Under the pieces are notes generated by a model. It did no database searches. It was given only the letters and a program-made list of their open reading frames with translations, and was not told where the DNA came from. A DNA stretch of 29,519 nt from an uncultured Candidatus Saccharibacteria bacterium (GTDB lineage Bacteria; Patescibacteriota; Minisyncoccia; Phycocordibacterales; Phycocordibacteraceae). Positions 12,352-29,519 of this stretch are shown here, piece after piece; position 1 is the first letter of the stretch; the number at the start of each line of letters is the position of its first letter. A program made the position numbers and the translations under genes. The DNA is taken from assembly GCA_964356775.1 (NCBI GenBank), contig CAYHIQ010000002.1, forward strand, positions 1-29,519, written 5' to 3'.

Positions 12352-13089
12352 ATGTATCTCGGCAAAAAAGTAAGCATCGTCCTTCCGATCTACGACGAAT
12401 GTCAGAGTGTGCGCGCGGCTATTGAGGAATTCCTCCGCCATCCGGCCGTGGATGAGATCATCGCCGTTGATAACAACTCGAAAGATGGCAGCGATGCCGA
12501 GATCAAGCTCACCTCGGCGAAGTATGTGAAGGAAATGAAGCAAGGATACGGAGCGGCGCTTCGGCGCGGTATGCGCGAGGCGACGGGCGACCTTATTGTC
12601 ACGTGCGAGCCGGACGGTACATTCCGCGCGAGCGATCTTGACCGGCTTCTCGTCTACAGTCAGGAATACGATGTCGTACTCGGTACACGCACCTCAAGGA
12701 GTCCGGTCTGGTCCGGCGGCGATCCGGGAGTAAACATGGACTTCGCGCTTCGCATGGGCAATTGGGCGGTCGCAAAGCTTCTCGAGTATCTGTTTGGCGG
12801 CCCCTCCCTCACGGACGTTGGTTGCAGTTACAAACTCATTCATCGCTTAGCGTACGAACAAGTAAAAGATTCGTTCACGGTCGACGGCAACTGGTTCTCT
12901 CCGGAATACATTATTCGCGTGCTCGAGCGCCGGCTTTCTGTCGTGGAAGTTCCGGTGCGTTACGGTGCGCGCATCGGAACTTCGAAAATTACTGGGAAAC
13001 GATCGAAAGCTATTGCGCTCGGGTTCCGTATGATAGGGTTCATCCTCTTCGAACGAATAACATCATGGATTCCTCATGCATCCGCATAA
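12352..13089 (+). CDS. Glycosyltransferase family 2, polyprenol-phosphate glycosyltransferase (DPM1/GtrB-like)
   Basis: SIVLPIYDE, VDNNSKDGS, QGYGAAL..G, DVVLGTR, LTDVGCSYKL, VEVPVRY..RIGTSK. Confidence 0.85.
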   Translation: MYLGKKVSIVLPIYDECQSVRAAIEEFLRHPAVDEIIAVDNNSKDGSDAEIKLTSAKYVKEMKQGYGAALRRGMREATGDLIVTCEPDGTFRASDLDRLLVYSQEYDVVLGTRTSRSPVWSGGDPGVNMDFALRMGNWAVAKLLEYLFGGPSLTDVGCSYKLIHRLAYEQVKDSFTVDGNWFSPEYIIRVLERRLSVVEVPVRYGARIGTSKITGKRSKAIALGFRMIGFILFERITSWIPHASA

Positions 13090-13102
13090 TGCCATACAGA
13101 GC

Positions 13103-14869
13103 ATGACCGAGTTCTTGGGACGACACCGCCCTCTCGTGGTGCTCCTTGCTCTGATACTCACACTGTCTCTCATCCCTGCTCTCGAAATATTCTTTTTCCT
13201 CGGAAACTCGTGGCAGGGTATTCCACCAGTGTTCGGCGATGAGACGCTCTATCATGCTCGCGTGCAGACCATAGTTCAGGGTCACACAGGAGGCAATCCC
13301 TATTTTATGGAGCACAGCGACGGACCTCCACTCGTTGTCTTCGGTGGCGCGTGGCTCAATGCGATTCCAGGTTTACTTGGCGTTTCATTCAATACAACGC
13401 TACTGCTCAATTTCATGTTGTGGAGTTTATTGTTTGCTTTGTCGGCGTTCTATCTGTTTCGTGAATTACGGGTACCGCCTTGGGTGGCTGTAGGCAGTAC
13501 TGTTTTTGTATACCTACAGTCGTATGCACATGTGTGGCGGCCCGCCAACCTTCAGCCAGTGTACCCATTCATTTTCCTATTTTATCTTGTCCTCGCACGT
13601 TTTATGCGTGAGCAGAGCCGGAGAAATAGCATACTGCTAGCTCTTGCAACGGGTGCAACATTTTACCTATATGCTTTTTTGTGGCAAATCGCTGTTGTCA
13701 CGCTCGGTCTTCTTGCTCTCTACGCGTTTGCGCAGAAGAATTGGCCGCTTTTGAGAGCAACAATTTTCTCGTCCTGTATCGGCGGCGCCATCGGACTTCC
13801 AGTGCCGCTCTATGTAGTATGGCTTTCGCATACGTCACCCTATTTCTGGGAGAGTCTTGGTCGTCTTGGGCTCGTGAACACGCATCTGCCGATGGCCGAG
13901 GTCATGTATTCGGGCGGATGGATCGGCATTGTGCTTGTATTGCTTCTCGTGCTCTCTAGGAAGGTGCAGATGTTGCGAGAAGACGTGGCTTTTGTGTCGC
14001 TCGGACTTTTTCTCACTATAAGCGGGTTTGGACTCTGGGGTATGCAGGGGAGTAATCTCATTACCGGCAAATTATTTGAAACGGCTGAGCACGTACGCAT
14101 ATTGATTCTCCCGTGGCTCGTATTCGCTACTGTTAGTTTGGGTGTATTTCTTTGGGAGCGGCGTGTACTCATGTCGAAATCAGTCCGGGTATTTTCGATC
14201 GCGGTAATCATTCTATTATCTGGAGCGCATGGATATTTCTTGAGGGAGTACATAGCTCCATTTTTACCGGCAAGCATCAGTCGCGAATCGTGGCAGACGC
14301 AGCAGCTCTATGCAAAACCTTTTGCGTGGTTGCAACAGCAGGAGAAAGATCCAATTGTCGTATGGAGCGACCCACATGATTTTCTCGCTACAGATCTTCC
14401 GGTCTTTACTCGACACTTCGCCTTGTATGCCTATTGGGGAATGCTTGAGTTGGTGCCTGAAGGTGAGATTCGTGAACGGTATCTCATCTCACAGTATTTT
14501 AATAATCCGACACTTTCTGATCTCAAATCAGAAAGTGAAATGTCGCTCTATCTTGGTCGTCACGATTTTCCTCATGAAGCGAAGACTGTTGAGCGGGGAA
14601 TTAAGCTCTGTCGAATACTGTTCTTTTGGGATACGCATAAAGAGTGTGGAACGCCCCCGACGCCGCAAAGCCTCTTGGGGGAAAAATTCTTCACCGATCT
14701 CGAGAGTAAGTTTCAGACCGACATAAAGCCGAACATCAAAACGTACCTGAAGAAGTATCATGTTGCGTACATACTGAAGGACAAGGTGCTCAATCCTACG
14801 TATCATCCCGAAACCCTTGGGGCGAAGCTGGTGTACGCTGATGACAGGTTCGAAATTTATCACCTTTAG
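13103..14869 (+). CDS. Polytopic membrane protein, probable GT-C-fold glycosyltransferase (alternative start 13076)
   Basis: About 11-13 hydrophobic segments, an acidic first-loop motif GDETLYHARV, and a ~190 aa soluble C-terminal domain; lies directly after GtrA and GT2 genes. Confidence 0.55.
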   Translation: MTEFLGRHRPLVVLLALILTLSLIPALEIFFFLGNSWQGIPPVFGDETLYHARVQTIVQGHTGGNPYFMEHSDGPPLVVFGGAWLNAIPGLLGVSFNTTLLLNFMLWSLLFALSAFYLFRELRVPPWVAVGSTVFVYLQSYAHVWRPANLQPVYPFIFLFYLVLARFMREQSRRNSILLALATGATFYLYAFLWQIAVVTLGLLALYAFAQKNWPLLRATIFSSCIGGAIGLPVPLYVVWLSHTSPYFWESLGRLGLVNTHLPMAEVMYSGGWIGIVLVLLLVLSRKVQMLREDVAFVSLGLFLTISGFGLWGMQGSNLITGKLFETAEHVRILILPWLVFATVSLGVFLWERRVLMSKSVRVFSIAVIILLSGAHGYFLREYIAPFLPASISRESWQTQQLYAKPFAWLQQQEKDPIVVWSDPHDFLATDLPVFTRHFALYAYWGMLELVPEGEIRERYLISQYFNNPTLSDLKSESEMSLYLGRHDFPHEAKTVERGIKLCRILFFWDTHKECGTPPTPQSLLGEKFFTDLESKFQTDIKPNIKTYLKKYHVAYILKDKVLNPTYHPETLGAKLVYADDRFEIYHL

Positions 14870-16701: not shown

Positions 16702-17302
16702 ACTCTGGACCGGAAAAATATATGCCCGAGATGGATTTACGCGTACGAACGTACTCGGCGCCACTGTGGCGCTCGACATAGGATGCGGAAATCGCAGACT
16801 TCCCGGCGCGCGCGGTGTCGACATTCTTTCGCTTCCAGCCGTTGATGTCGTACACGATCTAGCGCGATTTCCGTGGCCGTTTGCCGACTCAAGCATCGAT
16901 CTTGTCCTTGCCAATCATTTTTTGGAACATTCGGAGGACGTCGTGCGTACCATGGAGGAAGTGTATCGGATACTCTCGCCAGGCGGCCGTTTCGTCATCC
17001 AGGTTCCATATTTTCGCAGCGTAGATGCGATTAATGATCCTACGCATCGCCGATTTTTCTCTTCGCAGTCGCTCGATTATTTCATCGAAGGTTCGAAATT
17101 GTTCGATTATCATTATGCTAAGGCGTGTTTTGCAAGGCGTGGATTCTGCTACGGATGGCCGCATCCTTCCAAGAATCCGCTCAAGCGGTTTGGCAAGGCT
17201 CTCATCACGAGGCATCCTCATTTCTATGACCAATACCTCTCGTTACTTTTTCCGATGAAGTGCCTTACCTGGGAGCTCGAGGCAGTCAAAACGGAGATCT
17301 AG
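16694..17302 (+). CDS. Class I SAM-dependent methyltransferase (type 11-like)
   Basis: LDIGCG, VVHDLARFPWPFADSSID..LANHFLEH, EVYRILSPGG, VPY...DPTH. Start moved to ATG 16694. Confidence 0.85.
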   Translation: MTELWTGKIYARDGFTRTNVLGATVALDIGCGNRRLPGARGVDILSLPAVDVVHDLARFPWPFADSSIDLVLANHFLEHSEDVVRTMEEVYRILSPGGRFVIQVPYFRSVDAINDPTHRRFFSSQSLDYFIEGSKLFDYHYAKACFARRGFCYGWPHPSKNPLKRFGKALITRHPHFYDQYLSLLFPMKCLTWELEAVKTEI

Positions 17303-18459
17303 TTATTTGGTATCCCAAAAACATAATAGGAACTTGTGGCACTCATGAGCTTCTCTTTAAGGAAGGGAAGGTCTACGAGAGGGCTGAGGGAGGCACTACC
17401 ATCCGCCATTTTTATGAACAGGCGTAGATACATTTTCTCTCCACCATGCTTCGCTTCAACCATTTCGGCATCTGAACTCCCAAAAGAAGAGATATCGGTA
17501 AAGTCGTAGAAGTCGAATCCGTATGTTCGGTACACCGCCGCAAGTGTCGGGGCTAGGATTTTGAACGAAGAAGCATACGTCGAGTGCGGGTGTTCTTTGA
17601 GCGCGCGGTACTCCTTGTAGGCAAGAGGCGGGAGGAAGCCGATAACGGTTATTCCGCGTGTTTTGCACAGCTCAAGAAATGTCCGAAGTTCTGCAAGAGA
17701 ATCGTTTGAGATCGCATCTCCGTATACATCGCCGTTTGTGTCGGTAATGCTTGCTGCAAGGGCGTCAATGTCTGAGAGTGTTTTTTTCTGGACGAGAGGA
17801 GAACGGATGGCGTTTCCCCAGTAGCTGCTCCCGTCGTTCGTGAACCCATCCCCCGTAGTGCGGGCGCGCAGGCCGATAATGACAGTAGGGCTTTGTCGCG
17901 GGGTAAAGACATCGGTAAGCGTAAACTTTCCTGAGAAATAATCCGTATACACTTTCCACCACCCACCGTTGCGGAAAAAACTTTCGAAGAAAGGGTCGTA
18001 CGGTTGATCTCGAGTGGTAAACGGATTCGGTCTCGACATGACGTGATTCTTGGCGTTTTCGGGAGTAAACAGAGCCTGCTCCATATTCGCAATGACAATC
18101 TTCGGCGGGGTAGCGAGCTGATTTATAAAATAGACGTAATCACTGAGCGGGCCGACTGCGCCAGTTGTATTGTAAAAAACAGTTGGTTCTTTGAAGAATG
18201 CCGATCGGAACTCACCGACATGCGAGTTCCCCAGAGTGATGACTTGCGGCGCGCGCGCGCTTACTTCATCGATCTGTAGTGCCGGTCCGAAATTACTATA
18301 GGCCTGTCCGACGAGTATCGGTTGAGGCTGGTTCATCAGGTGTGCGACCATACTCAACGGATAAAATTCTCCGGACCATAGAAGCAGGACGAATGCTGGC
18401 GCGAAGAGTGCCGCAAGCGGCAGTAGAAAGAATACAAGTTTTTTTATGAATGCGCGCAT
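17299..18459 (-). CDS. Membrane-anchored SGNH-like protein, DltD/AlgJ-type partner of the MBOAT
   Basis: N-terminal TM (MRAFIKKLVFFLLPLAALFAPAFVLLLW), ITLGNSH (GxS block I), GFLPP, C-terminal EAKH (DxxH-like). True start ATG 18459 lies 1 nt after the MBOAT stop; the ORF-track start 18606 overlaps the MBOAT. Confidence 0.6.
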   Translation of the reverse strand: MRAFIKKLVFFLLPLAALFAPAFVLLLWSGEFYPLSMVAHLMNQPQPILVGQAYSNFGPALQIDEVSARAPQVITLGNSHVGEFRSAFFKEPTVFYNTTGAVGPLSDYVYFINQLATPPKIVIANMEQALFTPENAKNHVMSRPNPFTTRDQPYDPFFESFFRNGGWWKVYTDYFSGKFTLTDVFTPRQSPTVIIGLRARTTGDGFTNDGSSYWGNAIRSPLVQKKTLSDIDALAASITDTNGDVYGDAISNDSLAELRTFLELCKTRGITVIGFLPPLAYKEYRALKEHPHSTYASSFKILAPTLAAVYRTYGFDFYDFTDISSFGSSDAEMVEAKHGGEKMYLRLFIKMADGSASLSPLVDLPFLKEKLMSATSSYYVFGIPNN

Positions 18460-18460
18460 A

Positions 18461-19936
18461 TCAGAATTGGAAATAAATGAAGGTCTTTGGTACGAAGTTT
18501 CCCGCAAAGAGTATCCAGATGATGAATGCGTAATAGAGGGACCATCGTAGCGTGCGGCGGTACCACCATGCCGGAAGAGCAAGGCGGAGTTCTGTAAAAA
18601 GTTCATACGCGAACAAAATTGTTACGGAAACGCCAATCATAGCTAAGGTGGTCTTGCCGATACCTATTTCATAAAATGCGCAATAGTTCGTGCAAGTAAG
18701 ATATGAGAAAGCCCCCGGCCCCCAATCAAGGAAGACCTTTTTAATGATGGTGATGGCTTGGGTAAGATCATTGGCCCGGAAGAATACCCATGAAAAAGAT
18801 GCGAGAACAAACGTGATTACTATGTTTATACTGCGGGTATAAAAGGCATCCAGTTTAATAGGAAAGAAGCCAAGTATTTTTTCGCGAAGACTTCTCGTCC
18901 ATACTTCTAGACAAATAAGCAGACCGAATATGAGCCCCATAATGATAAAGTTCAACCCGGCTCCGTGCCACACTCCGGTAAGCAGGAAAGTGGTGATGAT
19001 TGAAAGGTACACCCAGGCAGCGCCACGCCCTTTTCCGCTCCAGACGAGTGGGTAGTAGACATAGTCTCGAAACCACAAGGAAAGCGATATATGCCATCGT
19101 CGCCACAATTCCGCAATAGACTCCGCGAAATACGGCTGTCTAAAATTCTGCGCAAGTTCTATGCCAAGCATACGCGCAGACCCGACAGCAATGTCGGAGT
19201 AGCCGGAGAAATCCGCATACAGCACGATCGCGAAAGAGAATACAGCGAGCAATACCATCGATCCGTTTGCGGTATCCAAGTGGCCATATACGAAATCAAC
19301 AAGAATCGCCAGATTGTTTGCTATGACTATTTTCTTAAAAAATCCCCAGAGCAGTAACTGTAGTCCCGAGACGGCACTATCATAGTTGAATGTGTGAGTG
19401 TTTCTTAGTTGCGGCAATAGGTGCTCCGGTCTCTCGATGGGACCAGCAACGAGCTGTGGGAAGAACATGACATAGAGGGCGTACGTAACATAGTTTCGTT
19501 CGGCGGCAAAACGTCCTTTATACACTTCGAAAATGTACGCGAGACTTTGAAATGTATGGAAAGATAATCCGATCGGCAAGATAATCGCTAACGACTCCAA
19601 CGAGTAATTCCAATGAAGAAAGTCTGCGAGAGTAGCGACATTTTGATTGAAAAAATTGAAGTATTTAAAAAAGAACAGAGTTCCGATGTTCGTAGCAATA
19701 CCGAACACAAGGTAAAGCATTCTGGTTTTTCCGACTGATCTCTCGATTCGCAAACCGAGGATATAGTCGATGGTAATGAGAAAAAAGAGTACAAGAATGT
19801 ACTGCGGGATGAACGCCATATAAAAGTAACAGCTTGCTAGAAGCAAGAGCCATTTTTGCCATGCTGCCGGAAGAGTAAAATATAAAATAAAGACGGAAAC
19901 GAAAAAGATAACGAAGGGGATGGAATCGAAAAGCAT
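18461..19936 (-). CDS. MBOAT-family membrane-bound O-acyltransferase (AlgI/DltB/PatA-like)
   Basis: MLFDS..F, LPIGLSFHTFQ, FFPQLVAGPIER, GFFKK..IAN, YADFSGYSDIA, NFRQPY.A.SI.E.WRRWHISLS.WFRDYVY, G.WHGA (catalytic His), C-terminal FIYFQF. Confidence 0.95.
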   Translation of the reverse strand: MLFDSIPFVIFFVSVFILYFTLPAAWQKWLLLLASCYFYMAFIPQYILVLFFLITIDYILGLRIERSVGKTRMLYLVFGIATNIGTLFFFKYFNFFNQNVATLADFLHWNYSLESLAIILPIGLSFHTFQSLAYIFEVYKGRFAAERNYVTYALYVMFFPQLVAGPIERPEHLLPQLRNTHTFNYDSAVSGLQLLLWGFFKKIVIANNLAILVDFVYGHLDTANGSMVLLAVFSFAIVLYADFSGYSDIAVGSARMLGIELAQNFRQPYFAESIAELWRRWHISLSLWFRDYVYYPLVWSGKGRGAAWVYLSIITTFLLTGVWHGAGLNFIIMGLIFGLLICLEVWTRSLREKILGFFPIKLDAFYTRSINIVITFVLASFSWVFFRANDLTQAITIIKKVFLDWGPGAFSYLTCTNYCAFYEIGIGKTTLAMIGVSVTILFAYELFTELRLALPAWWYRRTLRWSLYYAFIIWILFAGNFVPKTFIYFQF

Positions 19937-19948
19937 GTAATTGCGGGC

Positions 19949-19958
19949 AGTGTATCAT
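19949..19958. promoter_or_regulatory. Overlapping divergent -10 elements: TATCAT (+, 19953-19958) and extended TGaTACACT (-, 19957-19949)
   Basis: Both read directly inside the 30 bp gap between the MBOAT start (19936) and the acpS ATG (19967). Confidence 0.45.
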
Positions 19959-19966
19959 AGAGTGTG

Positions 19967-20311
19967 ATGGCTCCGATGCTAAAAAAAGCAGGTATTGATT
20001 TGGTGGAAGTCGCGCGTTTTCATCCATTCATACACAACAAAAAACATTCTTTTTTACGGAAAGCTTTTTCCGAGAAGGAAATAGCATATTGTTTCGCGTA
20101 TAAGGATCCCTCGGTACACTTGGCGGGTATATTTGCGGCAAAGGAGGCGGTTGCGAAGGCTCTCGGCGCTGCCGAGACTGCTTTCATCGAATTCGAAATC
20201 CGACATGCGAAAGGCGGGGCCCCGGAAGTATGGAGGAAGGATCGCAGGTTATCTATTGCTGTGTCTATAACTCATACGGATGCGATGGCGGCGGCCATTG
20301 CCGTGGGGTAA
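19967..20311 (+). CDS. acpS: Holo-[acyl-carrier-protein] synthase (AcpS-type 4'-phosphopantetheinyl transferase)
   Basis: GIDLVEVARF, FSEKEIAY, AGIFAAKEAVAKALG, GAP, VSITH; ~114 aa. Confidence 0.9.
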   Translation: MAPMLKKAGIDLVEVARFHPFIHNKKHSFLRKAFSEKEIAYCFAYKDPSVHLAGIFAAKEAVAKALGAAETAFIEFEIRHAKGGAPEVWRKDRRLSIAVSITHTDAMAAAIAVG

Positions 20312-20314
20312 CAT
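20309..20314 (+). promoter_or_regulatory. Putative -10 TAACAT overlapping the acpS stop, 8 nt before ATG 20323
   Basis: Read directly. Confidence 0.35.
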
Positions 20315-20322
20315 GTGCCGAT

Positions 20323-21372
20323 ATGCGGGAAAATAAAAAGTGCCTCGTTCTCGACCTCGATAATACGCTCTGGGGAGGCGTGGTGGGCGAGGACGGGCTC
20401 GAGAACCTCCACCTCTCTCTTACTCCTCCGGGGAGCGGGTACCTCGCTTTTCAGCAAGCAATCCTCGACCATTTTCATCGCGGCGTCATGCTTGCGATCA
20501 ATAGTCGGAACAATCCGGAAGATGCGCTTCTCGTGCTGCGCACGCACCCCAATATGCTCTTGAAGGAGCATCATTTTGCCGCCATGCGCCTTAATTGGAA
20601 CGATAAGGCACAGAATTTACGCGAAATCTCTGAAGAACTCAATATTGGCCTTGATGCGATGGTATTCCTCGACGATGATGCAGCGAATCGTTCGCTCGTG
20701 CGCGCACTTCTTCCGGAAGTAGAGACGCCAGATTTGCCAGTGGATCCTTCCGACTATGCGCGATTCTTAAATGCACAACAGTATTTCCCTTCAGAGGCAA
20801 TTACTGACGAAGATAAGATGCGAGGGAATCTGTATGTGACCGAACGCCTGCGAAGAGAGCAGGAAAAGCGTTATGCGAATAAAGAGGAATTTCTCGCGAG
20901 CTTGAAGCTCGAGCTCATTTGTAGCGAAGATGATAGCTCTTCTCTCGCGCGGCTGGCGCAACTTACTGAGAAGACAAATCAGTTCAATACGAACAAACGC
21001 CCACTTTCTGAAGGCGAGATACGCGCTTACCTCAAGAGTCCGGTACATCACGTATACCAGGCGCAGCTGCTCGATATATTTGGTGACTCTGGCATTGTCG
21101 CCTTCGCTCTTGTTGAAGAGCAAGGCAAGGAGTGGCATATCGATCAGCTCCTGATGAGCTGTCGTGTGTTCGGGCGTGCTGTCGAAAAAGCGTTTCTTGC
21201 TTTTATCGCGGACCGAGCTCATTCCGCAGGCGCGGAGCGTCTCTCTATCTCTTTTATCGAAACACCGAAGAATATGCCGGCAAAGGCGTTTCTCGATACT
21301 CATTTCAAGATGCGCACGCTCGCGCTCCACAAGATTCCTGCTGTGCCGACATGGATAACGATGCACGTATGA
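20323..21372 (+). CDS. FkbH-like HAD-IIIC glyceryl transferase/phosphatase
   Basis: KCLVLDLDNTLWGGVVGEDG (HAD motif I), LAINSRN, NWNDKAQN...ELNIG.D..VFLDD, KTNQFN, D.FGDSGIV, LMSCRV.GR.VE. Start moved to ATG 20323 (349 aa). Confidence 0.92.
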   Translation: MRENKKCLVLDLDNTLWGGVVGEDGLENLHLSLTPPGSGYLAFQQAILDHFHRGVMLAINSRNNPEDALLVLRTHPNMLLKEHHFAAMRLNWNDKAQNLREISEELNIGLDAMVFLDDDAANRSLVRALLPEVETPDLPVDPSDYARFLNAQQYFPSEAITDEDKMRGNLYVTERLRREQEKRYANKEEFLASLKLELICSEDDSSSLARLAQLTEKTNQFNTNKRPLSEGEIRAYLKSPVHHVYQAQLLDIFGDSGIVAFALVEEQGKEWHIDQLLMSCRVFGRAVEKAFLAFIADRAHSAGAERLSISFIETPKNMPAKAFLDTHFKMRTLALHKIPAVPTWITMHV

Positions 21373-21596
21373 AAACCTTTAACGCCATTGCGAGCCAGAT
21401 GTTCACTCTTCCAGAAGAGGGTATACATGACGCTCTCACGAGTCACGATATTCCAGCATGGGATTCTATGAATTATGTTTTTTTCATAGCAGAATTGGAA
21501 AAAGAATTCGGCATTTCATTCAGTATGGATGAAGTGATGAACGTCTCCTGTCTCGGAGACTTGCGCGCTATCGTCGAGAAGCGCGCGAAGAAATAG
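21369..21596 (+). CDS. Acyl carrier protein (75 aa)
   Basis: MKTFNAIASQMF...IPAWDSMNYVFFIAELEKEFGISFSMDEV; WDS phosphopantetheine serine. ATGA overlap with fkbH; it is the last 75 aa of ORF 21132..21596. Confidence 0.9.
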   Translation: MKTFNAIASQMFTLPEEGIHDALTSHDIPAWDSMNYVFFIAELEKEFGISFSMDEVMNVSCLGDLRAIVEKRAKK

Positions 21597-21597
21597 T

Positions 21598-22017
21598 ATG
21601 GAACCGGTCGAGCTCGCATTCGAAGATATCAGTGTGGGGGACAGTGCATCATTCGAGAGGGTCTTTACCACAGAAGATGTGCAGGCATTCGCGGCGTTGA
21701 GCGGCGATACAAACCCACTTCACACAAGCGAGTCGTACGCTGCCGGAACGCGTTTTAAAAAACCGCTCGTGCACGGGATGTTGGCGGGCGCACTCTGCTC
21801 TACTCTTGTGGGCATGCATTTGCCAGGCAAGCAGTGCCTGTACTTGCGCCAGACGCTCTCGTTCAAAAAACCTATTTTTATCGGCGACTCGCTCCGTATC
21901 ACGGGAGTTGTCACTGAAAAAGTTGCGGCGACCCGTATGCTCACGCTTGCGATTTCGATAACCTGTGAGGGCGTCCACGCGATAGAAGGGATGGCGACGG
22001 TACAGGTACTTGTATGA
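21598..22017 (+). CDS. MaoC/PhaJ-like hotdog-fold dehydratase
   Basis: FAALSGDTNPLH (catalytic D-x4-H), LVHGML, F.KPIFIGD. Confidence 0.9.
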   Translation: MEPVELAFEDISVGDSASFERVFTTEDVQAFAALSGDTNPLHTSESYAAGTRFKKPLVHGMLAGALCSTLVGMHLPGKQCLYLRQTLSFKKPIFIGDSLRITGVVTEKVAATRMLTLAISITCEGVHAIEGMATVQVLV

Positions 22018-22038
22018 TAGTAGGGATGCAATAATTTT

Positions 22039-22803
22039 ATGCAGGCACTCAAAAAAAACAGGAAAATAGCTCTCGTATCCGGAGGTATGGGGTATGTAGG
22101 GAAGGCTGTCACGCAAAGATTCGCCCAAGACGGTATCTCTGTTGTCGTCATGTACCATACGTCCTCGCAAGAATCGGTAGATGAATTTCTGATGTTGTTA
22201 GGGGAAGGGCACGCCGCCTATCAGTGCGATTTGGGAAATGAGGCGCAGATGCAAGAAACGATAGCGACGATAGAGCGCGAACAGGGACCGGTTTCGATAT
22301 ATGTGCATGCGGCGGGAGCATCGCCATCGCGTAAGCCGCTCCACCTTACTTCGACCGAAGAGGTGCTCGAAGCATTTAAGAAAAATGCGCTCAGCGGGTT
22401 TAATTTCTTTACCGCCGGTGCGACGTATCTGAAGGAGCGGAAAGAGGGCGTAATGATCGGTATCACTACGGCTGCGGTTGTTTTTCCTCAGAGCGTCGGT
22501 TCACTTGGTCCTTATGTAGCAGCAAAGTATGCGCTTCAGGGCATGCTTGCATCGTTTCGGGCTGAGCTTTTACCCTTTGGGATCCGCGTTTATTCAGTCG
22601 CGCCCGGTTTTATGGAAGGGGGAATGAATAGTGTGTTTCCGAAAGCATTTGTTGAGATGGTAAAAGCGAAAAGTCCTACAAAAATGCTCGCGACCGCTGA
22701 AAATATTGCTGAGCACATTTCATTTCTTGTCTCTGATGCGGGGAAAGATTTCACTGACCTTACGATTGTCGTTGCTCCTGAATTGGAGGTTCATGCTCTA
22801 TGA
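22039..22803 (+). CDS. Classical SDR oxidoreductase (FabG/ketoreductase-like)
   Basis: ALVSGGMGYVGKA, YQCDL, VHAAG, PYVAAKYAL (YxxxK), IRVYSVAPGF. Confidence 0.88.
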   Translation: MQALKKNRKIALVSGGMGYVGKAVTQRFAQDGISVVVMYHTSSQESVDEFLMLLGEGHAAYQCDLGNEAQMQETIATIEREQGPVSIYVHAAGASPSRKPLHLTSTEEVLEAFKKNALSGFNFFTAGATYLKERKEGVMIGITTAAVVFPQSVGSLGPYVAAKYALQGMLASFRAELLPFGIRVYSVAPGFMEGGMNSVFPKAFVEMVKAKSPTKMLATAENIAEHISFLVSDAGKDFTDLTIVVAPELEVHAL

Positions 22804-23861
22804 ATATTCGCAAAGCACTGACCTTTCGCGCGTCGTCTATCGGCGATTGTTTGATGGGGAAGTATCTTTTGGAGAATATTCACGCAGAGTATCCAGAGAC
22901 TCGTCTCGGCATCGTGGTAGCGGGCCGTGCAGCGATGATTCGCGATTTGTTCGCGGCCTATCCCTGGCTGGAGGTCATCGAAGCGAATCGTCGCAATCCG
23001 AGAACGCTCTTCGCGCTACTCCGTGATTTCCATGGAAGTGATTTGGTCGTAACGCAATATGCGGGCAAGAAGGGAGGAAGGTTCGGTTTTGGAAGCAAAC
23101 TTTTCGCGCGCCTGTTGGCACGAAGAGGAGGACTTGTTGGATTCACGGATGCGTTCCGATGGAATAGTGTCCTCTATGACCAGCTCGTACCAATAAAGGC
23201 CGGAGAGTCGATCGCTGAACATGAACGCGAAGTACTCGCGACTGTCGAGGTAACAGTCTCTTTACCGTTCCCCAAGCTCATTTGTTTGCCGGATGGCGCT
23301 ATTGTAGAAAAATTCGGCGTCGACGCGGAGAAGTTCATCATCGTGCACTTTTTTGCTGGAGGGAAGGGTCGGAGCATGAGTCCCGAAAAGAGTAGGGAAC
23401 TTCTCACGGCACTGCGTCGTGTTCTCTCTGATGACATTTCCATACTTGTAAGCGGGTCATCGGCGGACCGCTCATCTGCGCGCGCAATCGCGGAAGGCAT
23501 AGATGCGAAAGTCATCGCCGGAGAAACGACTTTGCAAGAAATGATGTGTCTTATCAAAGAGAGTCGGTGTGTGATCAGTGTTGACACCGGCATGGCTCAC
23601 ATCGCTGCGCATCTCGGGACGCCGCTCGTCGTCATGCGTACCTGCGTCGGCCGCAATTGGTGGCTCGCCGGGCAATATGGCGAGAACGCGCCCATCACGG
23701 TATGTGCTCACGATGTGTCGTGTAGAGATGGACATGTGAATAAGGAATATCCAGAGTGTCTGAACGAGATTTCCGTTGAAGAGATTGCCAACGCCGCAAG
23801 ACAATGTGTGTTACGTGACGACTCGCAGACGAGTTATAGAGAGGAAGCATCCCTTTCATGA
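22800..23861 (+). CDS. Glycosyltransferase family 9 (ADP-heptose transferase-like)
   Basis: TFRASSIGDCLM, YP, AGETTLQEMMCLI, ISVDTGMAHIAAHLGTPLVV. Confidence 0.85.
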   Translation: MNIRKALTFRASSIGDCLMGKYLLENIHAEYPETRLGIVVAGRAAMIRDLFAAYPWLEVIEANRRNPRTLFALLRDFHGSDLVVTQYAGKKGGRFGFGSKLFARLLARRGGLVGFTDAFRWNSVLYDQLVPIKAGESIAEHEREVLATVEVTVSLPFPKLICLPDGAIVEKFGVDAEKFIIVHFFAGGKGRSMSPEKSRELLTALRRVLSDDISILVSGSSADRSSARAIAEGIDAKVIAGETTLQEMMCLIKESRCVISVDTGMAHIAAHLGTPLVVMRTCVGRNWWLAGQYGENAPITVCAHDVSCRDGHVNKEYPECLNEISVEEIANAARQCVLRDDSQTSYREEASLS

Positions 23862-25780
23862 AAACCAAACTGAAACGACCGCAGGGCAATCGTTCGCGCA
23901 CCCTCTTCCTGCTCTATGAGTTGGGGCATATTGACGGGCTCGAGCGTCTCTTCCGCAATCAGCCGCATGAGCGCGCGGGCTCGCTCACGGTAGCATTGTC
24001 GCTCGATATAGAGGAGGAATTGAGAAAAAGGAATATCCCTTTTTTTTCAGGATGCGACTATAAAAAGATCGCACCTGATTTGCTGACGGCGCAGGATGCA
24101 ATGATGGACGCGTTTTTTGCTGATCCGCGATGGAAGCTCTTTACCTATCGCGGCATCGAACTCCGGACAACATTTCTCTTCATGTTTCGCGCGTACTTTC
24201 AGAGGGTGTGGTATTACGGCAATCTGCTCATTTCTATCCTCGAGGCTCATCCAGAGGCGGAGCGTCTCGCCGTATTTGCTCCGAGTGGCATGCTGTCGAG
24301 TGTCGCGGGCGGCCTTTCGCATCGCGAGCGGGAAGTGGTTATTGATTGTGCAAAAATAGTTGCGGCAAGGTCTGGTATGCCGGTCACGGTCGTGCCGTCC
24401 GATCGCGTCAGCGAGGCGCTCCACGACCGTTTTAGACTTTTCTTTTTTACGGTGCAACGAATGCTGTTCGGTTTTTCGCTTGCGGTATGGAATGCGTCTA
24501 TTGCGTTTCTATGTCGCCCCCGTCGCCCTCGCCTACTTATAAGCGATCATTGGAGGAATGTCGGCTCGACCATCGAGCTTCTTAAGGAAGGGGAGTGCAT
24601 TTTCCTCGATCGTCAGGAGATACGCCATATTCCCTGGCGCATGCTTTTGCGTTATCGGATGCATTTCGTGCACAGCGAGGATTTCGTATCGCGAAGTATG
24701 CGAAAACGTGCTCAGAAATCCGCGCAGGAATTTGCACGGGAGTGGGATACTCTGCGTTCCGATATCGACCCCGTCTTCATGTTCCGAGGATACTCATTCG
24801 ATGCTCTTTTGGTGCAGGCGGTTGACGATATTGTTCGCGGATTCGGAAAGTTGTTGCGTGAGATCGAGGGTACGTATGCGCTCTATGAACATTTCAAGCC
24901 CGATGTCGTCCTGCTGCGCGCGAGCGTGAGCGGACAAACGCATTTTTCCATTCTGCCGCTCGTCGCAAGAGAAAAACACATACTCTCCTTGGAGCTGCAG
25001 CACGGACTTGAATATCTCGGACCCGGTTCCTGGTCGCGCGAGCATGCGGCCGAACATATCGCCTCGTATGGGCCGCTCGTGAAGGAAGAACTTGTTTCGG
25101 CAGGGCACGCTCCGGAGCGCGTGCATGAGATTGGCTCGCCGCGTTTTGACGATCTGTCACGGATACCGGCTGTCGAGGGAAGTGGCGGACGCTCGCTTAC
25201 GGTACTGTGCATTTCTCCCGATATCCGTGTCTTCGAAATATATGATTCCTACAGCGCTGAGGATTATTTCACCACCGTAGCAGCGGCGATTGAGGCGCTC
25301 GGGGATGTGCGAACGATTATCAAATTCAGGCCGGGATCTCCTGACGAAGATCCGCTCCGCCTGATCGCCGCGAAGGCCTTTTCGAGGGTGCCGTACGTAG
25401 CGGCATCTTCCGAACCGCTTTCAGGTCTGTTCGATCAGGCGGATATTGTCGTCTCGTGCTATTCGACCGTGGCCCTAGAAGCCCTTCAGCGCGGTATGCC
25501 GGTCATCGTCCCTTCTCTGAATTCCGTCGATGCAGCGGTGGTACGCTTCCATTTCTCTCGTTATGTTGACGCGGGAGCGCTTCGCATCGCTTCGACTCAA
25601 GAGGAACTCGCCGCTTCGCTTGCGGAACTCGAAGCGAATCCTGCGCTGCGGAGCGACATGGGGGAGCGAGCTCGAGCATTCATTGACCGAAATTTCAGCT
25701 TTGACGGGCACTCGTCATCCCGATGTGCCGCTCTTATAATGGAGCTCGCTGATCGCTCGATGTCTTCCGTGCCGGAATAA
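23858..25780 (+). CDS. Hypothetical protein with C-terminal GT-B-like domain (CDP-glycerol transferase / nonulosonate or Kdo transferase-like); paralog 1
   Basis: LELQHGL, IGSPRFD, IIKFRP, ADIVVSCYSTVALEALQRGMPVI, FSFDGHSS. Confidence 0.55.
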   Translation: MKTKLKRPQGNRSRTLFLLYELGHIDGLERLFRNQPHERAGSLTVALSLDIEEELRKRNIPFFSGCDYKKIAPDLLTAQDAMMDAFFADPRWKLFTYRGIELRTTFLFMFRAYFQRVWYYGNLLISILEAHPEAERLAVFAPSGMLSSVAGGLSHREREVVIDCAKIVAARSGMPVTVVPSDRVSEALHDRFRLFFFTVQRMLFGFSLAVWNASIAFLCRPRRPRLLISDHWRNVGSTIELLKEGECIFLDRQEIRHIPWRMLLRYRMHFVHSEDFVSRSMRKRAQKSAQEFAREWDTLRSDIDPVFMFRGYSFDALLVQAVDDIVRGFGKLLREIEGTYALYEHFKPDVVLLRASVSGQTHFSILPLVAREKHILSLELQHGLEYLGPGSWSREHAAEHIASYGPLVKEELVSAGHAPERVHEIGSPRFDDLSRIPAVEGSGGRSLTVLCISPDIRVFEIYDSYSAEDYFTTVAAAIEALGDVRTIIKFRPGSPDEDPLRLIAAKAFSRVPYVAASSEPLSGLFDQADIVVSCYSTVALEALQRGMPVIVPSLNSVDAAVVRFHFSRYVDAGALRIASTQEELAASLAELEANPALRSDMGERARAFIDRNFSFDGHSSSRCAALIMELADRSMSSVPE

Positions 25781-25788
25781 TTTTCCTT

Positions 25789-27648
25789 ATGGTATCCCTT
25801 TTACGCGAGATATTCATTGCCTACGAGTCCGAGCATATTAATGAAGCGCACTCCCGCGCTGAAGCGGGCGCGACCATCATCGTCTTCAATTTCTTAGTCG
25901 AGTGCGAACTTAAGGAAAGAGGCGTTCCCTACATCTCGCTGCGCGACATCATCGATATGAAAGCGGAGGAAGGGTATTGGTCGATACTCTCCCATGAAGT
26001 GGCTCGAGAATGGTACCGAATTCCCGTCATGATGTTTTTTACCTACGAGGGTATCCGGATTGCTGAGGCTCCGGAGCCGGTCATGCAAGCGTACTTAGCA
26101 CGACTTTTTTATTACGTGCTGGTATACGCCGCCATAAAAAAAGCGTATCCGAACGCACAGGTTTTCATTCCAGAGCCTTCCGTTCTCGGCGATTCTGCAG
26201 CCGCTGTCTGTCTCGCTCCGTTTGTGCAGTGGGCGGTCATCGACGCGGCGCGCATGGTCGGCCTTCGTTATTCTGCCCAAGGCTTCCGCACGGTGCCGGT
26301 ATATGTGCCGCCCAAGCTTTCGTGGAAGTGGCTCATCTTGCGTGCCTACAATCTGCTCGTCGGCTTTATCCCGCGCCGTGGTTTCAAAATATACGCGAGT
26401 GAATACTGGACGCACCTTGCACCCATCGTTCCTTACCTGCAAGATTCGGAGCTCATGCTTCTGGAGAGTAGCAGATTCACAAACATACCCTGGCGACAGA
26501 CTCTTACTCATCGCATCCGCATCTTTCATTCGCACGACGTATCGAGCAGGATAGAGGAGCGAGATACTATGCGGATTTCAGCGGAATTCGCGAACCAATG
26601 GAAAAACGCGAAGCAAGAGGTTGCGGAGTATCTCGCTTCCGTACGGGACGATCTCGATTGGAGTCCTGTGCTTGAAGCGTGCGAGTATCTCATCGCGTAT
26701 GCGCCGCGCGTCATTGCCGATATAAAAACGCTGCGCCGCATCATGCAAAAAGAAAAACCGGATCTTGTACTTCAGATGGCGTCCGTCGGCGGCCCAGAAC
26801 ACTACTTTTTCCTCATGGCGCAGGTCGCAAGGCAACTCCATATTCCTTCGCTTGAGCTCGAGCACGCCACTGCGACCATCGATCCCCGCTCGGTGTTTTG
26901 CCGGATCGAGACAGACTATCTTGCGACCTACGGCGAGGACGTGAATAGGTGGCATGAACGCATAGGGCACGCACCAGAGCGGCTTATTGCGGTCGGTTCG
27001 CCGCGCTTCGACCGTTACGTGAATGAGCGCACGCAAGGAGTCGAAAGAGGTAAGCGGATGCTTGCAGAGCTCGGGCTCGACACTGCGCGGCCGGTCCTTT
27101 TCGCGTCCATCCCGTTTTCCGATATGTATGTCGGTACACCCGATTCCTATCAGCTTGCGGAATTCTTCGAGACGATCCGCGAGGTTCAAGAAAAAGTGCC
27201 CGGTCTCCAAATTCTCTTTAAGTTCCGCAGTCGTTCCCATGTCGGCGCGATGCAGAAATATCTTCAGGAGTTGTTTCCTGTGGACGTGGCGATGGCCGCG
27301 GATGAGGATATCTTCGCGCTTCTGTGCGCGAGCGATGTCGCCGTATGTAATAATTCGACCGTAATTTATCAGGCGATTCTCTCAGGGAAGCCACTGGTCC
27401 TTTATCCATGGAAAGCGTTCGACTCATATCACGCGAAGGTGTATGCGCAGGAGATACCGCTCTTTTACAACGCTCGGGAAGTCATTGACAGTCTCGTTCG
27501 CATTTTTGGGGAAGTGTCTTATCAAGAAGAACTTCTAGTGCAACAGAGACAGTTTCTCCAGAGATATTCTTTTGATGGGAAGTCGTCCGAGCGTTTGGCG
27601 GCACTTCTACGGAAGCTGTCGAAGCGAGGTCGGGATGAAACTTTATAA
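25789..27648 (+). CDS. Hypothetical protein with C-terminal GT-B-like domain; paralog 2
   Basis: LELEHA, VGSPRFD, LFKFRS, SDVAVCNNSTVIYQAILSGKPLV, YSFDGKSS. Confidence 0.55.
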   Translation: MVSLLREIFIAYESEHINEAHSRAEAGATIIVFNFLVECELKERGVPYISLRDIIDMKAEEGYWSILSHEVAREWYRIPVMMFFTYEGIRIAEAPEPVMQAYLARLFYYVLVYAAIKKAYPNAQVFIPEPSVLGDSAAAVCLAPFVQWAVIDAARMVGLRYSAQGFRTVPVYVPPKLSWKWLILRAYNLLVGFIPRRGFKIYASEYWTHLAPIVPYLQDSELMLLESSRFTNIPWRQTLTHRIRIFHSHDVSSRIEERDTMRISAEFANQWKNAKQEVAEYLASVRDDLDWSPVLEACEYLIAYAPRVIADIKTLRRIMQKEKPDLVLQMASVGGPEHYFFLMAQVARQLHIPSLELEHATATIDPRSVFCRIETDYLATYGEDVNRWHERIGHAPERLIAVGSPRFDRYVNERTQGVERGKRMLAELGLDTARPVLFASIPFSDMYVGTPDSYQLAEFFETIREVQEKVPGLQILFKFRSRSHVGAMQKYLQELFPVDVAMAADEDIFALLCASDVAVCNNSTVIYQAILSGKPLVLYPWKAFDSYHAKVYAQEIPLFYNAREVIDSLVRIFGEVSYQEELLVQQRQFLQRYSFDGKSSERLAALLRKLSKRGRDETL

Positions 27649-27694: not shown

Positions 27695-28705
27695 ATGCAA
27701 GAATTGCAAGGTAAAACAGTACTTATAACCGGCGGCACCGGGTCTTTCGGCAAGAATTTTGCCAAGCATATTCTCGCCAATTCGAAGCTGAAAAAGCTCA
27801 TTATCTTTTCCCGCGATGAGTTGAAGCAGTCGCAGATGCAGATGGAAATGACTGATGCTCGTCTCCGGTTTTTTATTGGCGACGTGCGCGATCTCCCTCG
27901 ACTTCAGCGCGCTTTTAATGGCGTTGATGTCGTCGTCCATGCCGCGGCGCTCAAGCAGGTACCGGCCCTTGAGTACAATCCGTTCGAAGCGGTCAAGACG
28001 AACATTCTCGGCAGTCAGAATGTTATTGAGGCAGCAATCGATCAGCAGGTAAAGAAGGTCGTGCTGGTATCGACCGATAAAGCGGCGATGCCAGCTAATC
28101 TCTATGGATCCACTAAATTATGCGCGGAGAAACTTTTTATCGCCGGTAATGCGTACAGCGATGACGGAAAGACGCGTTTCAGCGTCGTTCGTTACGGGAA
28201 CGTCGTTGGCAGTCGCGGAAGCATCGTCGAGAAGTTGCTGCTGAATAAGGGCGCACACACCGTGCACATTACTGATGAGCATATGACGCGCTTCTGGATA
28301 GATCTCGAGCAGGCGTTCAGTATAGTTCTTTTCGCTCTAGGACATATGGAGGGAGGCGAAATATTCATACCCAAGGCGCTTTCAATGAAATTGACGGATC
28401 TCTTCGACATTCTCGCGCCCATGGCAAAGCGCAACATCATCGGCATCCGTCCGGGAGAAAAGGTGCACGAAGTGTTGCTGACGAAGGAGGAGGCGCGCCA
28501 TGCGGTGGACTTTAAAGACTACTTTGTCATTTTGCCTGAGAATGTCAGTCAGATGAAACAAAAGAAAGGGCTGCAGAAATATCTCAAACAGAGCAAGCCG
28601 CTAAAGCCTGATTTCCAGTTTACGAGTGATACGACCGCCGGGCACATGTCGCAAAAGATGCTTCTTCAGATAGTCTCTCGTACGGAAGAGATCTTAAGAA
28701 CCTGA
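27695..28705 (+). CDS. pseB: UDP-N-acetylglucosamine 4,6-dehydratase (inverting), PseB/FlaA1
   Basis: ITGGTGSFG, IFSRDELKQ, FIGDVRD, VHAAALKQVP..EYNPFEAVKTN, STDKA..P.NLYG.TKL, VRYGNV.GSRGS, MTRFWI. Start moved to ATG 27695. Confidence 0.88.
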   Translation: MQELQGKTVLITGGTGSFGKNFAKHILANSKLKKLIIFSRDELKQSQMQMEMTDARLRFFIGDVRDLPRLQRAFNGVDVVVHAAALKQVPALEYNPFEAVKTNILGSQNVIEAAIDQQVKKVVLVSTDKAAMPANLYGSTKLCAEKLFIAGNAYSDDGKTRFSVVRYGNVVGSRGSIVEKLLLNKGAHTVHITDEHMTRFWIDLEQAFSIVLFALGHMEGGEIFIPKALSMKLTDLFDILAPMAKRNIIGIRPGEKVHEVLLTKEEARHAVDFKDYFVILPENVSQMKQKKGLQKYLKQSKPLKPDFQFTSDTTAGHMSQKMLLQIVSRTEEILRT

Positions 28706-29519
28706 TGATTCCTTACTCTACGCAAGACATCAACGAGGCGGATATTACGGCGGTCACGAAGGTGTTGCGCTCGGGATGGCTGACTCAGGGGCCAGCGATC
28801 GAAGGGTTCGAGAAAGCTATTGCGAAAAAAGTTGGTACGGGATTTGCGGTTGCTTTTAATTCTGGCACTGCTGCGCTCCACGCGGCGTATTTTGCCGCGG
28901 GTGTGGGGAAAGGGGATGAAGTTTTGGTACCTGCCATCACCTTTGCCGCAACTGGGAACGCCGCGCTCTATCTCGGCGCCACGCCCGTATTCGTGGATGT
29001 CGATCCTCTTACGGGAAATATGGATGTGAAGGACGCTGTGCGCAAGATAACCAAAAAGACGAAGGTCCTCGTGCCAGTTGATTATGCCGGTCGACCGACC
29101 GACCTCGCGGCATTCCGTGTACTCGCAAAGAAGCATAAACTGGTGCTGATAGAAGACGGCGCACAGAGTCTTGGCGCCTCCTATTGTGGCAAGTCGGTGG
29201 GTTCACAGGCCGACATGACCATGTTCAGCTTCCATCCGGTAAAGTCCATTACTACGGGAGAAGGTGGCGTTATCGTGACGAGCGATGAAGCGTATGCACG
29301 AGCACTACGACTATTTCGCAGTCACGGTATCACGCGTGATCCGCATTTCGTGAAAGAGAGTGAGGGTCCGTGGCACCAAGAGATGCACGCGCTCGGGGAA
29401 AATTATCGTATTACCGATATGCAAGCGGCACTCGGAGAAAGTCAGCTCAAGCGCCTCGGCTCGTTCATCAAGAAGCGTTCCGCTGCGGCACGCCGATATC
29501 CGAAACTGCTTAAAAATCT
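28705..29519 (+). CDS. pseC: PLP-dependent sugar aminotransferase (DegT/DnrJ family), PseC-like; partial, runs off the window
   Basis: Translated by hand from ATG 28705 (TGATG overlap with pseB): MIPYSTQDI...WLTQGP...NSGTAALH...VDYAGRP...IEDGAQSLGA...FSFHPVKSITTGEGG...NYRITD. Absent from the ORF track because there is no stop in the window. Confidence 0.88.
   Translation, partial: MIPYSTQDINEADITAVTKVLRSGWLTQGPAIEGFEKAIAKKVGTGFAVAFNSGTAALHAAYFAAGVGKGDEVLVPAITFAATGNAALYLGATPVFVDVDPLTGNMDVKDAVRKITKKTKVLVPVDYAGRPTDLAAFRVLAKKHKLVLIEDGAQSLGASYCGKSVGSQADMTMFSFHPVKSITTGEGGVIVTSDEAYARALRLFRSHGITRDPHFVKESEGPWHQEMHALGENYRITDMQAALGESQLKRLGSFIKKRSAAARRYPKLLKN

Follow-up and report, generated by a model that had tools for sequence, protein, structure and literature searches.

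A tandem pair of divergent TagF-like GT-B proteins ahead of pseB and pseC in a Patescibacteria genome: candidate CMP-nonulosonate transferases

The stretch of DNA analysed here (29,519 nucleotides; hereafter, the window) is an entire contig (CAYHIQ010000002.1, or C2) of the 626-kb, 68-contig genome assembly of an uncultured Candidatus Saccharibacteria bacterium of the Patescibacteriota (GCA_964356775.1; estimated completeness 85%). Close to its end and immediately ahead of the pseudaminic acid (Pse) biosynthesis genes pseB and pseC, the window carries two tandem genes, the products of which, P0001 (paralog A, 640 residues; 23858-25780, + strand) and P0002 (paralog B, 619 residues; 25789-27648, +), are most aptly viewed as an uncharacterised clade, set apart by its architecture, within the known TagF-like superfamily of glycosyltransferases with the GT-B fold, and not as a wholly new family. 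The hallmarks of this clade are an extra N-terminal domain and an arginine that replaces the second catalytic histidine of TagF-like enzymes. We lean towards the view that both proteins transfer nonulosonic acids activated with cytidine monophosphate (CMP), possibly as an initiator and an extender.

An old duplication and its orthologs

An earlier note on this DNA, made from its letters alone, had proposed that the two genes are diverged tandem paralogs. Both open reading frames are indeed present on the + strand, with pseB and pseC immediately after them, and all the shared blocks quoted in support of paralogy occur in the translations (EEELRKRNIPF/ECELKERGVPY, FTYRGI/FTYEGI, LELQHG/LELEHA, GSPRFD in both, IKFRP/FKFRS, ST..AL..G.P and FSFDGHSSSRCAALI/YSFDGKSSERLAALL). 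In a BLASTP comparison, P0001 and P0002 align end-to-end (residues 14-633 and 6-613, respectively) with 27% identity (E 2e-52). Each protein has its own orthologs, in 90 and 132 database clusters, respectively, and in a tree of 130 sequences, the A-clade (72 members) and the B-clade are split by a branch with 100% support; hence, the duplication is old, as had been surmised. The ortholog pairs often reside on one contig, and the homologs come from Kaiserbacteria, Paceibacteria and other genomes of the Parcubacteria group; among 401 genomes sampled evenly from the class, which also provided all base rates below, the full-length family was found in this genome and on one truncated contig only. 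When 1.84 billion representative proteins were searched with a profile, the family was represented, at E<=1e-30, by 445 clusters (at 50% identity) that share its length of about 620 residues; at E<=1e-3, the search extended to the 14,928 clusters of the wider TagF-like superfamily. Because every residue that is invariant across the two clades is kept in both P0001 and P0002, the two paralogs are probably both active.

Fold and sequence relatives

The AlphaFold model of P0002, built from the 130 aligned sequences, is of high quality (mean predicted local distance difference test score, pLDDT, 93.9; predicted template modelling score 0.93) and displays a complete GT-B fold at residues 196-619 (26374-27648, +), in which an N-lobe (about 196-400) with a helical insert (254-322) is followed by a C-lobe (about 400-619). 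The fold that the earlier note had asked to be checked was recovered both by structure comparison and by Foldseek, at residues 196-617 or thereabouts. The closest match in the structure comparison is a UDP (uridine diphosphate)-GlcNAc 2-epimerase (7vz6; VIA Z 18.7, root-mean-square deviation (rmsd) 3.8 Å, 332 residues aligned); BshA, MGD1 and TreT score a Z of about 17, the C-lobe by itself matches the domain of WaaA (4bfc) that binds CMP-activated 3-deoxy-D-manno-octulosonate (CMP-Kdo; Z 16.4, rmsd 3.3 Å), and Foldseek retrieves TagF (3l7m) at E 4e-9. By itself, structure does not tell GT-B families apart.

Ahead of the GT-B part, AlphaFold predicts an extra Rossmann-like alpha/beta domain (P0002 residues 1-195; 25789-26373, +), which, when modelled separately (pLDDT 85.6), resembles nothing more specific than generic Rossmann-like folds (Z <=7.2; Foldseek E no better than 1e-3). 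The region of about 300 residues that had been described as unrecognised in each protein is therefore made up of an extra domain of about 195 residues and, from around residue 196, where the GT-B fold begins, of the N-lobe of that fold. The hydrophobic stretch reported at its centre is weak: the 19-residue Kyte-Doolittle mean peaks at 1.44 at residue 202 of P0001, P0002 has no peak, and in the P0002 model, the stretch is a linker helix between the extra domain and the GT-B part. These hydropathy values do not favour a transmembrane segment, and a transmembrane anchor was rejected on this ground. P0001 and P0002 are most likely soluble or peripheral-membrane enzymes; unlike TagF, TarL and TagB, the family has no evident amphipathic membrane helices.

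At the sequence level, P0002 passes the gathering threshold of the Pfam family PF04464 (Glyphos_transf; 28.0 bits against 22.1), with residues 388-606 aligned to positions 149-364 of the 367 in the profile, so that the match spans the C-lobe only. P0001 stays below the threshold (15.2 bits, E 0.011), and many of its orthologs carry precomputed PF04464 matches. Among solved structures, the family profile finds TarL as the best relative (E 3.4e-12), followed by TagF (E 0.002), with epimerases (E 0.12) and KpsC chains (E 0.64-0.88) far behind. The resemblance of the C-terminal motifs to those of GT-B enzymes with CMP or cytidine diphosphate (CDP) donors, noted from the letters, is thus borne out by a TagF-like C-lobe. 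The notion of a new family without relatives had to be abandoned: P0002 passes PF04464, homologs are already named ‘CDP-glycerol glycerophosphotransferase family protein’ at NCBI, and the ESM Atlas contains full-length look-alikes (template modelling score 0.77 over 576 residues) from Archaea, Chloroflexota, Omnitrophota and other phyla.

Among NCBIfam models, the highest scores are those of NF046086, built for the BFO_1060 family of Pse and legionaminic acid (Leg) transferases of Tannerella, which matches 53 of the 55 B-clade and 38 of the 72 A-clade members (best E 1.4e-13 among 127 homologs), ahead of the TIGR04396, TarF and TarL models. BFO_1060 is one T. forsythia ortholog of Tanf_01245/TFUB4_00887, in knock-outs of which the O-glycan lacks its terminal Pse or Leg derivative (PMC5420450). 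Like P0001 and P0002, these proteins are TagB-like GT-B enzymes encoded beside a CMP-nonulosonate pathway, but they are about 445 residues long and lack the extra N-terminal domain.

Further weak matches involve TIGR04396 (39 of the 55 B-clade and 14 of the 72 A-clade members) and TIGR04326, models of ‘surface carbohydrate biosynthesis proteins’ which, together with the LIC12162 family, share with the present proteins a length of about 600 residues. In Herbaspirillum, members of these uncharacterised families have been seen next to neuABC and pse genes (PMC6679464). PF27859 (LIC12162 family) is carried by four distant A-clade homologs and by 38% of the members of the nearest structural Atlas clusters; the corresponding TIGR04331 model has no match in this genome at E<=1. 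The capsule synthesis family PF05159 (KpsS/KpsC, GT107) is represented by a sub-threshold score for P0001 (11.7 bits against 20, E 0.18) and by no match for P0002, and Maf (PF01973) has no match at E<=1. KpsS1 (GT118), Maf and FlmG all use CMP-Pse and are encoded near pse genes, but belong to families different from that of P0001 and P0002. Flagella are not known from this lineage, which makes flagellin an unlikely acceptor.

An arginine in place of the second catalytic histidine

In TagF and TarL, a histidine in the WHG motif (H444 and H300, respectively) is the catalytic base, whereas a second one (H584 and H433) is in contact with the phosphate of the donor and presumably gives a proton to the CMP as it departs; mutation of either abolishes activity (PMC10901376; PMC11666461). 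The second histidine is essential in TagF, TagB and TarL (PMC10901376). In profile alignments, Arg491 of P0001 (KFRP; codon 25328-25330, +) and Arg480 of P0002 (KFRS; codon 27226-27228, +) fall exactly on TarL H433 and TagF H584. The replacement of the usual K-H-P by KFRP or KFRS, spotted in the two translations, is accordingly real and extends to nearly the whole family: arginine occupies this position in 126 of the 130 sequences (72 of 72 in the A-clade, 54 in the B-clade), and the four others, all in the B-clade, have histidine, which supports the positional equivalence. These four are natural variants that carry the TagF-typical residue. An arginine, R212, also holds the CMP phosphate in WaaA (GT30), a GT-B enzyme that uses CMP-Kdo (PMC6286764), with a glutamate on the ribose; arginine at this position is therefore compatible with a CMP-ulosonate donor. 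The likeness to WaaA, a user of a CMP-ulosonic acid, lies in the C-lobe, whereas its N-lobe and acceptor (lipid IVA) are different and, by sequence, significant similarity is limited to two A-clade members (E 4e-5).

Eight residues are invariant in both clades (W207, E356, H359, G382, G403, R406, D596 and G597 in P0002 numbering). Two of these belong to the motif E-L-(Q/E)-H-(G/A), in which the histidine, His382 of P0001 (ELQHG; codon 25001-25003, +) and His359 of P0002 (ELEHA; codon 26863-26865, +), is the presumed catalytic base and is conserved in 130 of 130 sequences. In the P0002 model, His359 lies in the loop directly after the N-lobe strand 354-357. If this motif corresponds to the WHG of TagF, it reads QHG, QHA or EHA in the family; a QHG variant of WHG is described for hexose-phosphate transferases with the GT-B fold (PMC11666461). 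The start of the C-lobe is marked by GSPRFD (P0002 residues 403-408; 26995-27012, +), which aligns with GVPRTD of TarL and GYPRND of TagF. Overall, the family shares with TagF, TarL and TagB (PF04464; PDB 3l7i-m, 8va1) the GT-B fold, the C-lobe motifs G-x-P-R-x-D, S-(S/T)...E and DG-x-SS-x-R, a putatively equivalent invariant histidine that follows a strand of the N-lobe, an extra N-terminal domain like that of the polymerases and the arrangement of paralogs as pairs within one operon (primase and polymerase).

Other Patescibacteria encode up to nine shorter TagF-like or BFO_1060-like proteins (about 450-500 residues) per genome, without obvious WHG or HP motifs. In an hhalign comparison meant to map the N-lobe histidine of the family onto a WHG motif, such proteins of about 450 residues align with 99.5% confidence but offer no clear WHG or HP motif to which the histidine could be assigned. 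Their genes often adjoin those for CTP_transf_3 cytidylyltransferases or PseB (genomes G104, G123, G178 and G073; also seen in G130), and the proteins seem to form a further and larger group of potential CMP-sugar transferases.

Genomic context and the supply of the donor

The pair is embedded in a tightly packed, single-strand operon, in the order GT9, paralog A, paralog B, pseB, pseC. The first of these genes encodes a heptosyltransferase-like GT-B protein of glycosyltransferase family 9 (22800-23861, +; Pfam PF01075, 47.7 bits; NCBIfam heptosyltransferase models, E 2e-14), and its stop overlaps the start of P0001 by 4 nucleotides; P0002 begins 8 nucleotides past the P0001 stop. The pseB gene, for the inverting UDP-GlcNAc 4,6-dehydratase (27695-28705, +; TIGR03589, 436 bits against a cut-off of 407.75), begins 46 nucleotides past the P0002 stop, with an ATG at 27695 preceded by AGGA, and is followed by pseC (28705-29519, +; TIGR03588, 367 bits for 271 residues), which is cut by the contig end. 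The last 55 nucleotides of the window (29465-29519) are identical to the start of another contig, C6, the PseC reading frame runs across the join, and the start of C6 matches positions 262-380 of the PseC profile; therefore, the operon goes on into C6. There (C6, 1-9286), the rest of pseC is followed, in order, by genes for a class-III aminotransferase, a CTP_transf_3 cytidylyltransferase, a Gfo/Idh/MocA oxidoreductase, a DUF218 protein, a PseI/NeuB-type synthase (312 bits, slightly below the PseI cut-off of 340), two methyltransferases and an ATP-grasp enzyme. Given these genes, the product of the cluster is probably a modified Pse-type sugar instead of plain Pse5Ac7Ac.

We compared this cluster with 17 loci from other genomes, retrieved with the B-clade alignment. 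The tandem pair is present at 7 of them, the remaining loci having the B-type gene only. A PseB homolog (56-82% identity) lies downstream at 11 of the 17, a GT9-like homolog lies upstream of the family gene at 11, and one or more homologs of nonulosonate pathway proteins (PseB, a PseC-type aminotransferase, a cytidylyltransferase or a PseI/NeuB-type synthase) are found within 10 kb downstream at 14 of the 15 loci with downstream DNA, the other two loci ending less than 1 kb from the family gene. Even at the exceptional locus (L030), a CTP_transf_3 gene follows some 15 kb further downstream, on what contig numbers and coordinates suggest is one and the same contig. All 18 family-bearing genomes (these 17 and the present one) carry a CTP_transf_3 gene over the Pfam threshold, compared with base rates of 133 of the 401 genomes for CTP_transf_3 and 22 for PseB over the cut-off, and the sole CTP_transf_3 gene of the present genome is the one in the cluster. 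The homologs are therefore strongly tied to nonulosonate pathway genes. Of the two outcomes that the earlier note had named as refuting its idea, a fold other than GT-B and a lack of enrichment of homologs beside nonulosonate pathways, neither was obtained. Conversely, homologs for the synthesis of CDP-glycerol or CDP-ribitol, namely, TagD (TIGR01518), PF01467 and IspD/TarI (PF01128), were not detected in this genome, nor was any TagD over the cut-off in the 17 others, and the family genes are fixed beside nonulosonate, not tag or tar, genes.

One step of the Pse pathway is missing from this inventory. Homologs of PseG (TIGR03590), PseH and NeuC (TIGR03568) were not found in this genome (PseG and NeuC at E<=0.01); none of the 39 genomes tested that bear PseB or the family, this one included, has a detectable PseG, and a search for NeuC in the 17 other family-bearing genomes likewise gave no match. 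A candidate for the absent nucleotide-sugar hydrolase, suggested by gene neighbourhood, is the DUF218 protein (C6, 4426-5055, +) encoded between the cytidylyltransferase and the synthase. DUF218 proteins are present in 11 of 21 other PseB-positive genomes, mostly beside CTP_transf_3 or PseB (G244, G146, G119, G027, G289, G031, G180 and G187), and in G027, DUF218 and the cytidylyltransferase share one open frame of 470 residues, an apparent fusion. The GT9-like protein was also considered as a general analogue of PseG and rejected, its gene not being found in the 21 other PseB-positive genomes that lack the P0001/P0002 family.

Proposed function and alternatives

The gene context, that is, the pathway genes downstream, the CTP_transf_3 gene in every family-bearing genome and the lack of detected CDP-alditol synthesis, argues for a CMP-nonulosonate donor. 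Under this scheme, the CMP-activated Pse-type sugar made by the downstream genes, from pseB and pseC through the cytidylyltransferase to pseI, would be transferred to a surface glycan, the assembly of which would fall to the many glycosyltransferases encoded upstream. The C-lobe would bind CMP through the S-T...E and FDG-x-SS-x-R motifs, the near-invariant arginine (R480/R491) would hold the CMP phosphate in place of the usual histidine, and the N-lobe would use its invariant Glu-x-x-His (E356/H359 in P0002) to activate the acceptor hydroxyl. The two paralogs would perform different transfers, for example, attachment of the first Pse to the glycan, followed by one more or by repeated additions, a split between initiation and extension modelled on TagB/TagF or KpsS/KpsC. 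What the analysis shows is the paralogy, the fold, the homology to TagF-like proteins, the arginine replacement, the synteny and the lack of a detectable CDP-alditol supply; donor, acceptor and division of labour are what we infer from these data. In a more far-reaching version, which we regard as improbable, the pair would be the initiator and polymerase of a nonulosonic acid homopolymer or repeat, which would give Patescibacteria an anionic wall polymer akin to teichoic acid but based on carboxylates; its makers would be descendants of TagF that traded phosphotransfer from CDP-alditol for glycosyl transfer from CMP-ulosonate, and the leaving-group histidine for arginine.

Several observations weigh against the transfer of nonulosonic acids by these proteins. 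GT-B sialyltransferases and the T. forsythia enzymes have an HP motif (PMC5420450), which is absent from this family. The NF046086 scores of P0002 (39.1 bits) and P0001 (26.2 bits) are far below the cut-off of 200, and the model discriminates weakly, since it also matches TagF-type genes in the B. subtilis and Lactococcus controls; the result accordingly indicates proximity to the BFO_1060 family and no membership in it. At the level of residues, the equivalence of His382 and His359 to the TagF base H444 is one that we infer from the sequence motif. The neighbouring GT9-like GT-B protein may supply the acceptor sugar, or else it could itself be the true nonulosonate transferase. Finally, weak TagD-like matches exist in some of the other family-bearing genomes, and the missing CDP-alditol genes are no proof in a genome that is 85% complete.

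One alternative is that P0001 and P0002 are what their database name suggests, genuine TagF-type phosphotransferases that build a teichoic-acid-like phosphodiester polymer from alditol-phosphate or sugar-phosphate carried by CDP or another nucleoside diphosphate, with the pse genes as mere neighbours. The PF04464 match of P0002, the rank of TarL among solved relatives, the TarF or TarL models that match 10 members of each clade, the QHG variant known from hexose-phosphate transferases and an extra N-terminal domain of the kind described for TagF-like polymerases (PMC10901376) are all in keeping with such an activity. Yet, the histidine on which this chemistry depends is an arginine in nearly all members, the TagD, PF01467 and IspD/TarI searches of this genome provide no source of the donor, and the constant partner of the family is the nonulosonate pathway, so we hold a phosphotransferase to be unlikely. 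A similarly low probability attaches to ordinary glycosyltransferases of the same glycan with another donor, such as a UDP-sugar, which would add the Pse-receiving or a capping residue and leave the nonulosonate to the GT9-like or an unlinked protein. The equally strong structural matches to the UDP-dependent BshA, MGD1 and TreT, the sub-threshold GT1/GT4 matches of P0001 and the GT9-like gene that travels with the family fit this proposal, but the only significant sequence similarity is to the TagF-like group, which uses CDP or CMP, the TagF-like C-lobe motifs are retained, the GT4 signature EX7E is absent, and the place at the head of the pse operon is kept across highly divergent genomes.

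The gap at the PseG or NeuC step raises yet another interpretation, namely, that one or both proteins are GT-B nucleotide-sugar hydrolases that provide the PseI-type synthase with the free 6-deoxy-hexosamine. UDP-GlcNAc 2-epimerases, including the hydrolysing NeuC, are the top fold matches, and some homologs have weak precomputed PF02350 matches. By sequence, by contrast, epimerases are far more remote than TarL, and proteins of 620 residues with an extra domain and in two copies are more than a hydrolase needs. Nor is the distribution complementary, given that the 21 other PseB-positive genomes lack PseG, the family and the GT9-like gene alike, and the DUF218 protein, located in or fused into Pse clusters, offers another candidate; we consider a hydrolase very improbable.

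Other genes in the window

Ahead of the GT9-like gene lies a module (17299-22803) that encodes FkbH (20230-21372), a small protein resembling acyl carrier proteins (ACPs; about 21369-21596, WDS motif), a MaoC dehydratase and a FabG-type reductase and, on the opposite strand, a DltB-like MBOAT protein and a 435-residue protein without a family match. The FkbH/ACP/MaoC/FabG/MBOAT module is absent from all 17 related loci and is therefore a lineage-specific add-on. Within the run of glycosyltransferases, a 366-residue protein (9790-10890) has an Exostosin/GT47 domain (47 bits, over the threshold) and no NCBIfam match. A 597-residue open reading frame (13076-14869), located in a stretch with a strongly negative AT skew (-0.25), matches neither Pfam nor NCBIfam models and probably encodes a polytopic membrane protein. 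Genes for a VirD4/TraD-like ATPase and a ComEA-like protein (155-2626) lead the same strand, immediately ahead of the first GT4 gene.

Concluding remarks

The cell surfaces of the candidate phyla radiation are essentially uncharted; few Pse or Leg transferases are known, and none from this radiation. With about 445 clusters and a fixed place before the pse genes, the family described here constitutes a well-defined, expressible set of candidates. Should the use of CMP-nonulosonates prove true, the common database label ‘CDP-glycerol glycerophosphotransferase’ would be corrected for these proteins, the TagF-like enzymes would gain a second branch that transfers nonulosonic acids, and there would be an answer as to whether arginine can assume the role of an otherwise essential second histidine.

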